The notes under the pieces: generated by a model
Seen by the model: the letters and a program-made list of their open reading frames with translations, nothing else
The model's database searches: none
Told to the model about the DNA's origin: nothing
Shown here: one piece after another, positions 22,852-26,637 of the stretch
How the letters are laid out: each line of letters opens with the position of its first letter
Position numbering within the stretch: the stretch's first letter is position 1
From: Aggregatilineales bacterium
GTDB taxonomy: Bacteria > Chloroflexota > Anaerolineae > Aggregatilineales > J027
DNA: 64,000 bases
Direction: 5' to 3'
NCBI GenBank assembly: GCA_965215855.1
Contig: CBDCER010000003.1
Span: forward strand, 3,467,201-3,531,200
Made by a program: the position numbers and the translations under genes

Positions 22852-25800
22852 TTACAAGTCCTCAACGTTTTTGAATCTTTTCATAGTCCCTCTATCGTCA
22901 ATCGAGAGACGGTCTTCAGATACATATTTGCTGGTAAATTCAGGCGTCACGAAATCCTGATCACCATAGTGGTATTGTTCTCCACCATGTTCACTACCTT
23001 TGCCTCGATTAAAATGCTGCGTTAAGAGCTGAAGGTTGGTTATATCTATAGCATGCTGCCATCTTTCTTGGTCGCTTGATTTGTAACCTTCATCAACCCA
23101 ATGGAATGCTACAGGTGTGTCGTGATCGACTTCATAATGCATGTGTTTATGAATACCTTGCATACCCCCATCTTGATACCAAGTTGCGACTTGATGTGCA
23201 GAAATGCCCGGATTGATTAATTGTTCCATTTCTAGTTCGCTGATAATGTTTTCAGCTTGGTCAATATCTCCTTGTTGGACGCTATCAACTAACTCTAAAA
23301 TGAATTCCCGCTCAATTCTCTCAAATTCACTATCTCTAAATTGTGTTCGAACATTACTCCAACCACTGCCACGTCCAGTGTAGAGATTGTAGCGAACATC
23401 GTAATTATCAGGTAATTCTCGGCGATCAGGAACATCTACTAGTTTTGGCTGTTTTACAGTATTTTCATCAGTTGCCTGTGTTGATTTGATAGTAGTACGC
23501 TGCACAAATGATAAATTATAATCCCATGTTGTGCCACCATCAACTATCTGGATACTTTCAATATCCTGTTGTTCGTTGCTCACCTGAGAAGCTATCTGTT
23601 GTGCTTCATCTCTAGTAATTGAGTCTTCATCTCGGTGTTCCGGTTCCTTGGTTCGAATAGAAGTAAGTGCAACACCAATTTTCTGGTCTTTGTCTTCATC
23701 ACCAGTATTTGGCCCTTCTGTGTCTTCTTCCTCGCCGCCAAGACCCATACTCTTCAGCAGGCCTTTCGCTTTATCGACCAGCCAGCCAATCGCCTCATCC
23801 AGGACACTTTCTACCATACCCTGAACGCCCTTCACCGCATCAGCAACTTTATCGGGCAGGCCACCCAACCCCAGCAAATCGGCCAGGAAGTCAATGACAA
23901 CCGGCAGCACACCCGCCAGTGTCTTCTCAATGGCCGCTGCCATGCCGCCGATGTTGCCCGCAATAATATCCTGGATGCCACCTACAATCGTCTCGATGAG
24001 GCTGAAGATTTTTGCGGCGTTCTCAAAGAGCCAGTTCAGGACTTTATAAATGGCCTCAATTGCCTGCACAATCGCGCCCGCCGGGTTCAACATGCCAATG
24101 ATACGCATGGTGACTTGTTTGATCAACGTCTCAATAACAAAATCAATGGCGGTTTGCAGGATAGTGTCGAGAATGTCTTTGGGATTGATCTTATCTTTGA
24201 TCCACTCGAAGATGCCGGCTGGCCCCTCAGCGATAAAGGTCGAAATCACTTCCCAAGCCTGTTCAATCAGGGCAACGTTTTCTTCGCCGACGTGTTTGGC
24301 AATCAACTGCCGAATCTTGGCCCAGCTAATGCCCATGATTTGCAGGAAGAAGGTGATGATACTCTTTAGCGAGAAATCACTCGGAATCTCGATGCCGACA
24401 CTGTCCATTCTAGCGAACAGCCACTTGATAAGGCCATCCAGCAAGTGCGTGCCGATGTTGTTGAAGAACATCTGGAACCCTTGTTTAAGGGCTTCCATCA
24501 AGTTGTTGGCGAAACCCACCGGATCCTCGGCAATAGAGTCAATGGCGCTCTTGATACGATTGACCACTGCCCAGAAGGCAGCTGGGACAATGCCGACCAA
24601 TTCCAGCAAGCCATTGATAATGAACTTGGCCGGGTCTTCAAGGAACGTTGTAATTGCGTCGGCAATCTTACCAACCAAACCCTTCGCTTTTTCGCGTAGG
24701 CCATGGACTTCCTGGCGCACTTCCTGGACAGCGTTCGAGGCCAGGTTTATCAATTCTTGATTGAAGTTGTCGCGGGTTTCGTTGACGCTTTGGCTAAGGC
24801 CATTCAGTTTCTCATCAAATTTGGCCCGCTCTTGAGTTGCCCACTCTTGCAGGTTGGCTGGCAATTGGTCATAAAGGGTGTTGATATCCTCGCGGGCTTT
24901 TTCAATGATGGCATGGGCTGACGCGACGATACCGTTGACCTCGGTAGAGATTTCGCGGAGCAGATTACAGACTCCATCACCGAAGTTTCTTTCGGCATTG
25001 TCATAGGCCTCGGTGGCCCAACCGGGTAAGCCAAATGTAGAGTCCCACCATTCTACGACGTCACCTAACACGCCGGAATGGCGCTCTTCAATTTTTTCTT
25101 CAACAACCCGTAAATCATCTTTGAATTTTTGGGATAAATCACCAATCCCTGCGTCCCATTTCTCTCTTGCTTTTTCAGGGACTTCTTTCATCAAATCGTC
25201 AACACTCGATTGGGCATTGCTGTAAATGGTGTTCGCTTGTTGCCCAACCTGCTGGCGCATCTGCTCTTCAGAGCCGACCATTTCATTTTGTTGACCGCCG
25301 ACGTTGGTAACCGTTTGCGCTCGTGATTCTTGCAGGGATTGTAAGGCTTGTGCTTGAAGTGCGGCCATGTCGGTATCGGCTTTTACCAGTGCTTCCTGCT
25401 GTTTAGCTCGTGCAACAGCAACGTCTTCTTCTGCGGTTTGCTCCAGATCTTCCTGGGCTTCCCGTGCTTCGGCGATGGGGCCACTCTCTACTAACGCTGC
25501 CGGCTCACTGGTCATACCAGCTTCTTCAATCTTTTGCTGATTTGCTTCTACATCTTCATCAAGCGATGTGTCTTCATCAGGAATCGGATCAGGCTTGGCT
25601 TCCTGTGCGTTTATATTTTGGGTTTGTTCGGCAGGTGGTAATTCTTCAGTAGGTTCAGGCTCACGTGTCGCTTCACCTTCCTGCTCCTCCTCCATTTCCT
25701 CATAAGATTCCTCGACATCTTCGGCCTTGCCCTCCAATGATTGATTCAGTTCCTGACCAGCTGCTTGAGCCATAGCCTCTGGATCAGCATTCACGAGTGA

Positions 25801-26637
25801 GTCCTCGTCGGGGGGGCGTTTGTTGCGTATAACTTGCCGAATACGCGCACACAGCTCTTCTATTTCGAGGCTAGGTTCAGGTTGGCTGCCTAATTCTTGA
25901 ATTAGCTCTTGTTCGGCACGGGCATCGATTTCTTCATCAGGTTCGGTAACCGCGTCACGTGCCTCCGTCACATGTTCGGCGGAGGGGGGCAGTTCCTCCT
26001 GTTCCGAGGCGGTAACTGCGGCCCGTTCCTGAACTTGCCCCATACGCTGTTGACTCTCGGAGGAAGGTGTTTCGGGAGGAGGGGGCATTTTTATTGCAAC
26101 ATCGCTGCTGGATGCTGCGCTGCTGGCTTCTGAGGATGCTTGTTCTGGTTGCGCCTCTCCTCGTGATTTCCCAGATGACACTGGAGCCGTTGATGTAGGA
26201 CCGTTCGTACCTGTCTTTTTGGCCGACTTCGGCTTCGTCGCTACAGACTTGGGTTGTTTGGGCGCTGTCTTTGCTGACGAGGTTTCACTTTTTCCGCTGG
26301 TATCTTTAGTTGCAGTAGGTGGAGTCTTTTTAGGAGTGGGTTGAGCAGTTGGTGCTTGTTGATTAGTTGCAGTTGGCGATGTGGAGTCTTTCTTTTTGGC
26401 CTCTTCGCGTTGAATTATTTGCTGGGTTGCTCGATTACCAAGATGCCTTTGTAACTTCAACACATCTTGAGGTCGCATGGGTCTTGGACGGCGTTGTCGA
26501 AGCGCCGCCAAACTTAATCTATGTATATCAACTGTTGTTTCGTGTTCGGTTTGGTGTGTCTGCGATGTTTGGTCTTTGTCTCCAACTGCTTTGTCAACCG
26601 ATTGATGTTCAGACACCAACCACTTTCCTCTGCCCAC
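22852..26637 (-). CDS. large polymorphic-toxin-like protein with C-terminal HNH/EndoVII-fold nuclease domain
   Basis: 1261-aa ORF. The GTG start at 26637 is uncertain; TTG at 26619 or GTG at 26616 follow a GAGGAAAG SD-like run. It has an N-terminal LKLQRHLGNRATQQIIQ motif, a P/T/K-rich tract, an E-rich acidic tract and a long helical region. The C-terminus is HYEVDHDTPVAFHW...NLQLLTQHFNRGKGSEHGG (HNH pattern DH..P / N.Q.L / N..KG). Confidence 0.8.
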   Translation of the reverse strand: MGRGKWLVSEHQSVDKAVGDKDQTSQTHQTEHETTVDIHRLSLAALRQRRPRPMRPQDVLKLQRHLGNRATQQIIQREEAKKKDSTSPTATNQQAPTAQPTPKKTPPTATKDTSGKSETSSAKTAPKQPKSVATKPKSAKKTGTNGPTSTAPVSSGKSRGEAQPEQASSEASSAASSSDVAIKMPPPPETPSSESQQRMGQVQERAAVTASEQEELPPSAEHVTEARDAVTEPDEEIDARAEQELIQELGSQPEPSLEIEELCARIRQVIRNKRPPDEDSLVNADPEAMAQAAGQELNQSLEGKAEDVEESYEEMEEEQEGEATREPEPTEELPPAEQTQNINAQEAKPDPIPDEDTSLDEDVEANQQKIEEAGMTSEPAALVESGPIAEAREAQEDLEQTAEEDVAVARAKQQEALVKADTDMAALQAQALQSLQESRAQTVTNVGGQQNEMVGSEEQMRQQVGQQANTIYSNAQSSVDDLMKEVPEKAREKWDAGIGDLSQKFKDDLRVVEEKIEERHSGVLGDVVEWWDSTFGLPGWATEAYDNAERNFGDGVCNLLREISTEVNGIVASAHAIIEKAREDINTLYDQLPANLQEWATQERAKFDEKLNGLSQSVNETRDNFNQELINLASNAVQEVRQEVHGLREKAKGLVGKIADAITTFLEDPAKFIINGLLELVGIVPAAFWAVVNRIKSAIDSIAEDPVGFANNLMEALKQGFQMFFNNIGTHLLDGLIKWLFARMDSVGIEIPSDFSLKSIITFFLQIMGISWAKIRQLIAKHVGEENVALIEQAWEVISTFIAEGPAGIFEWIKDKINPKDILDTILQTAIDFVIETLIKQVTMRIIGMLNPAGAIVQAIEAIYKVLNWLFENAAKIFSLIETIVGGIQDIIAGNIGGMAAAIEKTLAGVLPVVIDFLADLLGLGGLPDKVADAVKGVQGMVESVLDEAIGWLVDKAKGLLKSMGLGGEEEDTEGPNTGDEDKDQKIGVALTSIRTKEPEHRDEDSITRDEAQQIASQVSNEQQDIESIQIVDGGTTWDYNLSFVQRTTIKSTQATDENTVKQPKLVDVPDRRELPDNYDVRYNLYTGRGSGWSNVRTQFRDSEFERIEREFILELVDSVQQGDIDQAENIISELEMEQLINPGISAHQVATWYQDGGMQGIHKHMHYEVDHDTPVAFHWVDEGYKSSDQERWQHAIDITNLQLLTQHFNRGKGSEHGGEQYHYGDQDFVTPEFTSKYVSEDRLSIDDRGTMKRFKNVEDL

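Follow-up and report, generated by a model that had tools for sequence, protein, structure and literature searches.

A probable polymorphic cargo toxin of an extracellular contractile injection system, encoded far from the injection gene cluster in an Aggregatilineales bacterium

The polymorphic toxins of extracellular contractile injection systems (eCIS; PVC/Afp-like), or eCIS-associated toxins (EATs), are a described class whose members carry an N-terminal PVC-metallopeptidase/DUF4157 domain (Zhang et al. 2012, PMC3482391; Geller et al. 2021, PMC8213781). We analysed a stretch of 64,000 nucleotides from an Aggregatilineales bacterium (Chloroflexota; assembly GCA_965215855.1, contig CBDCER010000003.1, positions 3,467,201 to 3,531,200), hereafter the window, in which a minus-strand open reading frame (ORF) encodes a protein that we refer to as the toxin. 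Like the EATs, it has a constant N-terminal part, C-terminal toxin domains that are exchanged among its relatives, a hydrophilic disordered N-terminus and an eCIS in its genome, and many of its sequence relatives have DUF4157 (PF13699, the eCIS core domain). It differs from them in having no DUF4157 of its own and in lying 1.36 Mb from the injection operon; moreover, the 'very long linker' that Geller et al. described between DUF4157 and the toxin domains (PMC8213781) corresponds here to the best-conserved part of the protein. The class of toxin is already known, and what is particular to this locus is the orphan position of the gene, the leader without DUF4157, a WD40-like partner candidate and genomic evidence for a leader motif as the mark of dispersed cargo. 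From sequence comparisons, we consider it probable that the toxin is a polymorphic cargo toxin of the genome's single eCIS.

Other described cargoes resemble the toxin in part. By its description, Tme of the S. davawensis contractile injection system (CIS; PMC11126660) is also a large, mostly helical or disordered cargo with hydrophobic helices, a remote similarity to tape measure proteins and a C-terminal endonuclease, but it has DUF4157, its gene lies within the cluster, upstream of the baseplate genes, and its nuclease is EndA-like (DRGH). The Sle1/Sle2 pair of the S. lividans phage tail-like particle (PMC13277306) combines a tape-measure-like effector free of DUF4157 with a separate small DUF4157 protein encoded beside the sheath gene, and in the present genome a 259-aa DUF4157 protein is likewise encoded between the AAA+ ATPase and the cap/sheath genes. 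The Sle1 and Sle2 genes are adjacent and Sle1 has no nuclease tip, whereas the toxin and DUF4157 genes studied here are far apart and their products share the same leader motif. A further likeness is to Cgo1/Cgo2 of AlgoCIS (PMC8894135; 10.64898/2026.05.27.728243), which need a disordered N-terminal region for loading into the tube lumen; their loading depends on the AAA+ ATPase and DUF4157 is dispensable. An N-terminal sequence and the AAA+ ATPase are required for cargo loading both in AlgoCIS (10.64898/2026.05.27.728243) and in PVC (PMC11495950). In the cited papers, eCIS loading sequences are described by physicochemical properties alone, or as not conserved between systems; the AlgoCIS work (10.64898/2026.05.27.728243) found the latter, whereas in our data a short motif recurs across phyla.

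The host genome (three contigs, 4.9 Mb) holds a complete eCIS cluster on the minus strand at C3:2113391-2132171, C3 being the contig of the window, with each component in single copy. Its genes run in the order AAA+ ATPase (WHD+AAA), 259-aa DUF4157 protein, Pvc16-type cap, sheath, tube protein, two small unknown proteins, second tube protein, an 1109-aa protein in the tape-measure slot, tube initiator with LysM, spike, gp25, Baseplate_J and two FHA-bearing proteins. The DUF4157 gene is the sole PF13699 match of the genome. No phycobilisome gene was found, which makes a cyanobacterial host improbable. A first-pass annotation, made from the letters of the window, had seen no injection apparatus there, had left the export route as a question and had proposed a search of the genome for an eCIS; the 64 kb indeed contain no such gene, and the complete eCIS found in the same genome answers the question. 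As to individual cluster genes, the 1109-aa protein (L007:1141-4470 (-) = C3:2121141-2124470), encoded between the tube and tube-initiator genes, has no Pfam or PHROG match; we considered it as a relative of the toxin core and rejected this, finding no relationship. The last two cluster genes (L006:13388-16189 (-) = C3:2113388-2116189) encode N-terminal FHA domains fused to Tail_P2_I and to TSP3 repeats.

The gene surroundings of its relatives link the toxin to such systems. We probed 80 fetched loci of the family with the host genome's own eCIS proteins: in most of them a homologue of the Afp15/Pvc15-type AAA+ ATPase is encoded immediately next to the family gene, and in several, sheath, gp25, Baseplate_J or spike genes are found at most 10 kb away. 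Where at least 8 kb was available on both flanks, 48 of the 51 loci have an eCIS gene and 42 have the ATPase, usually directly adjacent; in locus L091, the order is eCIS_core toxin, a 291-aa gene and WHD+AAA. Since only 3 of these 51 well-flanked loci are without a nearby eCIS gene, the copy studied here is an unusual orphan. It is the only family member of its genome (C3:3.49 Mb) and is not adjacent to an AAA+ ATPase, the one Afp15-like gene of the genome being in the distant cluster. In the window, it is flanked by genes for a WD40 protein, for an FHA protein and for an unusually long RND transporter. Three further genes there (425, 436 and 152 aa) were considered as sheath or tube genes and rejected, as they encode S41 peptidases and SmpB.

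The leader provides a second link. A six-frame pattern search of the host genome found its motif, LQ(R/K)xxGNxAV, in four long ORFs, namely those of the toxin, of the cluster's DUF4157 protein and of two proteins of 578 and 519 aa (Table 1), which, judging from the shared motif, are candidates for additional orphan eCIS cargo. The motif lies 45-84 codons into each open frame, ~40-60 residues past the likely start codon. A leader profile built solely from other genomes and run on the 31,373 ORFs of the host genome ranked the cluster DUF4157 protein at E 6e-6, the toxin at 2.7e-5 and the other two ORFs at 8e-4 and 0.2, with noise only above E 1. The first-pass annotation had linked this signature to segments preceding DUF4157 and to proteins of which some are associated with eCIS, and both links were borne out: the profile is specific in the host genome, the relatives P0182, P0128, P0098 and P0114 have the leader before DUF4157, the leader is always upstream of HExxH where both occur, and the motif is common to the toxin and the cluster DUF4157 protein. 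In the toxin it was present as described but one residue earlier, at residues 60-76 instead of 61-77. The leader-bearing N-termini of the family comprise 13 with a DUF4157-type HExxH and 13 without.

We then compared the leader with the machine by running the same kind of profile on the 20 nearest genomes and the host genome (21 in all). Leader-bearing ORFs, 1-9 per genome, occur in all 12 genomes with a close sheath homologue and in one with a partial sheath, and in none of the six sheath-free genomes or the two with only a distant sheath, that is, in 13/13 genomes with this eCIS sheath and in 0/8 of the others; the pattern is clean, but as related genomes are not independent samples, this co-occurrence is given without a probability. 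In eight genomes one leader match lies ~1.4-1.8 kb from the sheath gene. A tentative proposal, to which we give somewhat less than even credence, is that LQ(R/K)xxGNxAV may be a sequence-specific, cross-phyla address tag by which DUF4157-type contractile injection systems recruit cargo, irrespective of where its gene is located. If true, the whole payload set of a genome could be read from the leader motif (four proteins here, up to nine in relatives), most of these payload proteins having no known domain, DUF4157 would work in trans from the cluster, and the view that eCIS loading sequences have only physicochemical properties in common would be overturned. The choice of cargo by contractile injection systems is of practical importance because the particles are being engineered for protein delivery. 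The locus is a clean natural test case: a single machine with a single ATPase, four proteins (one encoded in the cluster, three far from it) with a common short N-terminal motif, and a motif that tracks the machine perfectly among the 21 related genomes.

The same evidence bears on whether the toxin could be exported in another way (by a type VII secretion system (T7SS)-like, umbrella-particle-like or lysis-dependent route), the eCIS link being coincidental. The gene adjoins no eCIS gene and the top PDB fold match of the core is the UmbC umbrella toxin, at a non-significant E of 0.17. However, no LXG/WXG, PAAR or RHS domain was found in the toxin, and its first 60 residues are hydrophilic (Kyte-Doolittle maximum -0.38), so there is no Sec-type signal, as first annotated. 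Together with the ATPase at most family loci and a leader that is common with the cluster DUF4157 protein and tracks the eCIS, this makes another route highly improbable.

The core of the toxin places it in a large family. Residues 480-1000 matched 619 proteins, of which the 120 listed are 53-68% identical. Among the matches listed, the relatives come from cyanobacteria, myxobacteria, Nitrospira, Verrucomicrobia, Bacteroidota, Acidobacteriota, Gemmatimonadota and other groups, many have an N-terminal PF13699, and their C-terminal domains vary (Ntox15, AHH, Endonuclea_NS_2, WHH, colicin DNase, deaminases). When one genome per species was scanned, core relatives turned up in 348 genomes of many phyla. 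In a 66-sequence alignment, conservation begins at residue ~184 and ends at ~975 (~790 residues), with a mean column identity of 60%; between family members the identity of this core is 43-68%. The first-pass annotation had described an extremely acidic, disordered tract in this part of the protein. The acidic composition is real (7-19 D/E per 50-residue window over residues 201-450), but the stretch has invariant prolines, a cysteine and charged residues across phyla and aligns from residue ~184, and it is therefore part of the conserved ~790-residue domain and not a free, low-complexity disordered spacer. The long 'linker' of DUF4157 toxins is thus a strongly conserved domain without a curated model. 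Relatives whose tip is a different one have a junction module of ~60-75 residues (985-1063) between core and tip as well; it is placed identically in P0075, P0076, P0077 and others, and stands alone in the short proteins P0008, P0030 and P0036 (phmmer). By these sequence criteria, the toxin is a full member of a very widespread family in which the helical core is constant and the C-terminal toxin domains are exchanged.

An AlphaFold2 (AF2) model of the core from the 66 sequences is all-helical, with a mean predicted local distance difference test score (pLDDT) of 65 and three helices of 50-64 residues at pLDDT 85-90, and PHROG tape measure families match the core weakly but repeatedly (1.3e-6, 2.8e-6 and 3e-3). 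The long helical rod and these weak matches would suit a structural tape measure, that is, a ruler of tube length in place of a delivered toxin. We regard this as very doubtful, since the 1109-aa gene already fills the tape-measure slot of the cluster, the family has exchangeable toxin tips, and the protein is missing from five same-genus genomes that have the sheath, while a ruler would be indispensable. Only two segments of the toxin reach a 19-residue Kyte-Doolittle mean of at least 1.4, with peaks of 1.86 (residue 673) and 1.92 (residue 907); they are the two helices quoted in the first-pass annotation, and they lie within one of the best-conserved blocks of the core and within a conserved block, respectively.

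The C-terminal tip has a family of its own. Residues 1040-1261 retrieved 72 proteins at E <=1e-3 from the full HMMER library, in which the tip domain is C-terminal or nearly so in homologues of 90-1796 aa; several of these have the same core and some have DUF4157. The motif EVDHDTP...NLQLL...NRGKG of the toxin (residues 1169-1214) contains the predicted catalytic block D1171 H1172 ... N1201 ... N1210 ... K1213 (nt 22996-23127). In a 35-sequence tip alignment, D, H, W, R, N and F are invariant within the pattern VDHxxPLAxHW...G.N..D..R...NL......NxxKG, with D1171, H1172, W1180, R1192, N1201, N1210 and K1213 as counterparts in the toxin; in the tip alignment A1, D108, H109 and N147 are invariant and L139 is near-invariant, corresponding to D1171, H1172, N1210 and L1202. 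Scanned singly, 13 of the 35 tip members match GmrSD_C (DUF1524, PF07510; best 1e-6), 7/35 match HNH_4 and 2/35 match GH-E. When the tip profile was compared with four GmrSD_C domains in hhalign, the DH/EH, NL/GNL and N columns were aligned (E 0.003). The tip shares the DH, N, N, K pattern with GmrSD_C and with Tox-DHNNK, which was reported among PVC-delivered toxins (Zhang et al. 2012, PMC3482391), and its residues fit the published Tox-DHNNK signature ('DH, N, N, N, K'), though only at the level of the motif. For Tox-DHNNK, the immunity partners reported are SUKH, SuFu and Imm33, as opposed to the WD40-like protein here, and the toxin itself falls under the threshold of every Pfam HNH model. 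Pfam and NCBIfam gave no toxin, HNH or DUF4157 match on the whole toxin or, in a segment-wise comparison of the kind that the first-pass annotation had advised, on three segments of it; members of its tip family do match HNH-clan Pfam models. A PDB sequence search with the toxin protein gave nothing useful and a word-index homologue search with the tip alone gave no match. We conclude that the tip is likely, but not proven, to be a His-Me finger/HNH nuclease (Tox-DHNNK, GmrSD_C-like), at the level of the family profile only.

The gene that follows the toxin gene encodes a WD40-like protein that is homologous to the products of the genes immediately following the two further complete toxins that bear this tip, in L091 (Crocosphaera; E 2.5e-8) and L018 (a myxobacterial metagenome-assembled genome; E 9e-7). 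The downstream proteins of L091 and L018 match one another at E 9e-35, and the WD40-like gene thus follows the same tip in three phyla. A hidden Markov model (HMM) of the three WD40-like proteins had no further match among 8,380 ORFs of 82 loci, none of the 80 other loci having a homologue. The GC content is 0.36-0.43 over nt 22001-23500, an interval that spans the toxin tip and the WD40 gene, versus ~0.50 in the core. Because a downstream gene that travels with a toxin tip is a hallmark of an immunity protein, the WD40-like protein is likely the cognate immunity protein of the tip. Next comes a gene whose product has a conserved accessory N-domain and a C-terminal FHA. The N-domain family is found on the same strand, no more than ~1.7 kb downstream of the family gene, in 23/76 loci, often with one variable gene in between; as it occurs downstream both elsewhere and here, the orphan locus has kept a conserved module of toxin, variable gene and accessory gene. 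The WD40-like immunity candidate and the accessory protein represent two partner families not described in the cited papers.

These partners are relevant to the direction in which the toxin acts. As in Streptomyces, a cytoplasmic or membrane-anchored system could fire within the producer or a kin filament, the nuclease then bringing about regulated cell death or the release of extracellular DNA in place of an attack on foreign cells. Tme of S. davawensis, tape-measure-like and with a C-terminal endonuclease, acts on the DNA of its producer (PMC11126660), no recognisable tail-fibre gene was seen in the host eCIS cluster, and the FHA domains in the last cluster genes and in the accessory gene suggest a phospho-threonine-dependent control of the system. 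Such inward action is nevertheless unlikely in our estimation, since a dedicated immunity-like gene that co-varies with the tip fits protection from a weapon better than a suicide factor, and the tips vary among relatives in the manner of antagonistic toxins.

In regards to the distribution among close relatives, all five same-genus genomes have the eCIS sheath (76-79% identity), as do 15 of the 21 relatives overall. The toxin itself, however, is missing from all five same-genus genomes, and its family is found among the 21 only in the host genome, save for a leader-bearing, fragment-like 456-aa relative in G001, a same-genus genome. With the sheath conserved in the lineage and the toxin restricted to the host genome, the toxin is a recent accessory payload of an older machine: an eCIS conserved throughout the genus has gained its gene as a lineage-specific extra. 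The G001 ORF (G001:C90:11531-12607; L097) has the leader followed by only the hydrophobic second half of the core, with 27% identity to residues 658-954, and represents a shortened form of the family or else a remnant of it. The orphan position of the toxin gene, its loss of DUF4157 and its absence from close relatives could also be read as signs of a displaced, decaying and disused remnant. This is scarcely credible given that the 1261-codon frame is intact, that the core retains every invariant residue and the tip its catalytic D, H and N, and that the three-gene module is kept, the toxin and WD40 genes being just 11 nt apart.

Several results weigh against the toxin as an eCIS cargo with a nuclease tip. 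With no eCIS gene in the window, there is none within about ten genes of the toxin, and the cluster at C3:2.11-2.13 Mb is 1.36 Mb away. PF13699 (DUF4157/HExxH) was unmatched in the whole toxin and in residues 1-100, in agreement with the first-pass annotation, which had seen no HExxH core. Proximity to the cluster and DUF4157 are both usual markers of such cargo. Of 174 N-termini in the family, only 26 had a recognisable leader. No significant match (E >=0.13) came from searching the core model for similar folds (Foldseek, PDB and BFVD). As for the tip, the toxin itself matches no HNH model (its best match is PML_C, E 0.07-0.1), the hhalign probability for tip versus GmrSD_C is only 10%, the tip profile had no match among PDB sequences, and an AF2 tip model from six sequences reached a pLDDT of 36. 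The HNH/EndoVII-like C-terminus first proposed is supported through its family, some of whose members match HNH-clan Pfam models, and through the DH...N...N...K pattern of the toxin's own C-terminus; for the toxin alone, it falls below significance. Finally, the partial locus L090 has the same tip and no WD40-like gene.

If the toxin is a cargo of this eCIS, loading would recognise the disordered leader with LQ(R/K)xxGNxAV, and the Afp15/Pvc15-type ATPase would feed the unfolded toxin into the tube lumen, while the small cluster-encoded DUF4157 protein might provide in trans the function that the toxin lacks. Contraction would expel the tape-measure-like core, whose two conserved hydrophobic helix pairs could engage the target membrane, and the C-terminal His-Me (HNH, Tox-DHNNK/GmrSD_C-like) domain would cleave the target DNA. 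In the producer, the WD40-like protein encoded 11 nt downstream would block the nuclease, and the product of the next gene (conserved N-domain and FHA) may work as an accessory or adaptor protein.

The coordinates of the toxin modules, its downstream genes and the other leader-bearing ORFs are given in Table 1. An identical database protein, P0002, begins 7 codons downstream of the toxin's GTG, at nt 26616, and is 1254 aa long. The P/T/K/A/S-rich stretch of the first-pass annotation was recovered by windowed composition at residues ~78-183 (18-31 P/T/S/A per 50-residue window over residues ~78-200); this spacer is the site where relatives of the toxin have DUF4157, and their N-terminal regions are 118 to 552 residues long.

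Table 1. Coordinates of the toxin, its modules, the downstream genes (positions in the window) and two further leader-bearing ORFs (contig positions).
Feature	Position	Strand	Remarks
Whole toxin ORF	22852..26637	-	1261 codons open, GTG start
Hydrophilic N-terminal leader, residues 1-80	26398..26637	-	proposed eCIS loading tag, holds motif VLKLQRHLGNRATQQIIQ
Leader motif VLKLQRHLGNRATQQIIQ, residues 59-76	26410-26463	-	
Leader motif LKLQRHLGNRATQQIIQ, residues 60-76	26410-26460	-	
P/T/K/A/S-rich variable spacer, residues 78-183	26089..26406	-	composition
Conserved all-helical core, residues 184-975	23713..26088	-	acidic part (184-~450), long coiled helices, two hydrophobic helix pairs
Hydrophobic segment 1 IINGLLELVGIVPAAFWAVVNRI, residues 673-695	24553..24621	-	candidate membrane-inserting helix; Kyte-Doolittle 1.86
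Hydrophobic segment 2 IGGMAAAIEKTLAGVLPVVIDFLADLLGLG, residues 896-925	23863..23952	-	Kyte-Doolittle 1.92
Acidic linker and junction ('pre-toxin') module, residues 976-1063	23449..23712	-	phmmer
C-terminal toxin domain, residues 1064-1261	22855..23448	-	predicted His-Me finger (HNH) nuclease
WD40-like 297-aa protein	21947..22840	-	Pfam WD40; 11 nt after toxin stop
262-aa protein, conserved accessory N-domain and C-terminal FHA	21137..21925	-	N-domain ~140 aa, no Pfam
Leader-bearing ORF, 578 aa	C2:139734-141476 (ORF L008:5740-7476 = C2:139740-141476)	+	no Pfam domain
Leader-bearing ORF, 519 aa	C3:2722008-2723579 (ORF L009:6008-7567 = C3:2722008-2723567)	-	no Pfam domain; HESFH (HExxH-like)

Three other genes of the window were also noted. 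The RND (AcrB-type) transporter ORF (26993-31903 (+)) encodes 1636 aa, ~600 residues over the usual length, with the Pfam match in four stretches. A 292-aa protein (47096-47974 (+)) has RRM_1 and a PHAX RNA-binding domain (E 2.5e-18), the latter known from the eukaryotic small nuclear RNA export adaptor. Lastly, a protein of 1276 aa (48174-52004 (-)) combines a pair of lamin-tail domains with Big_5, DUF11 and an Exo_endo_phos nuclease/phosphatase domain; it is probably a nuclease that is secreted or lies at the surface.

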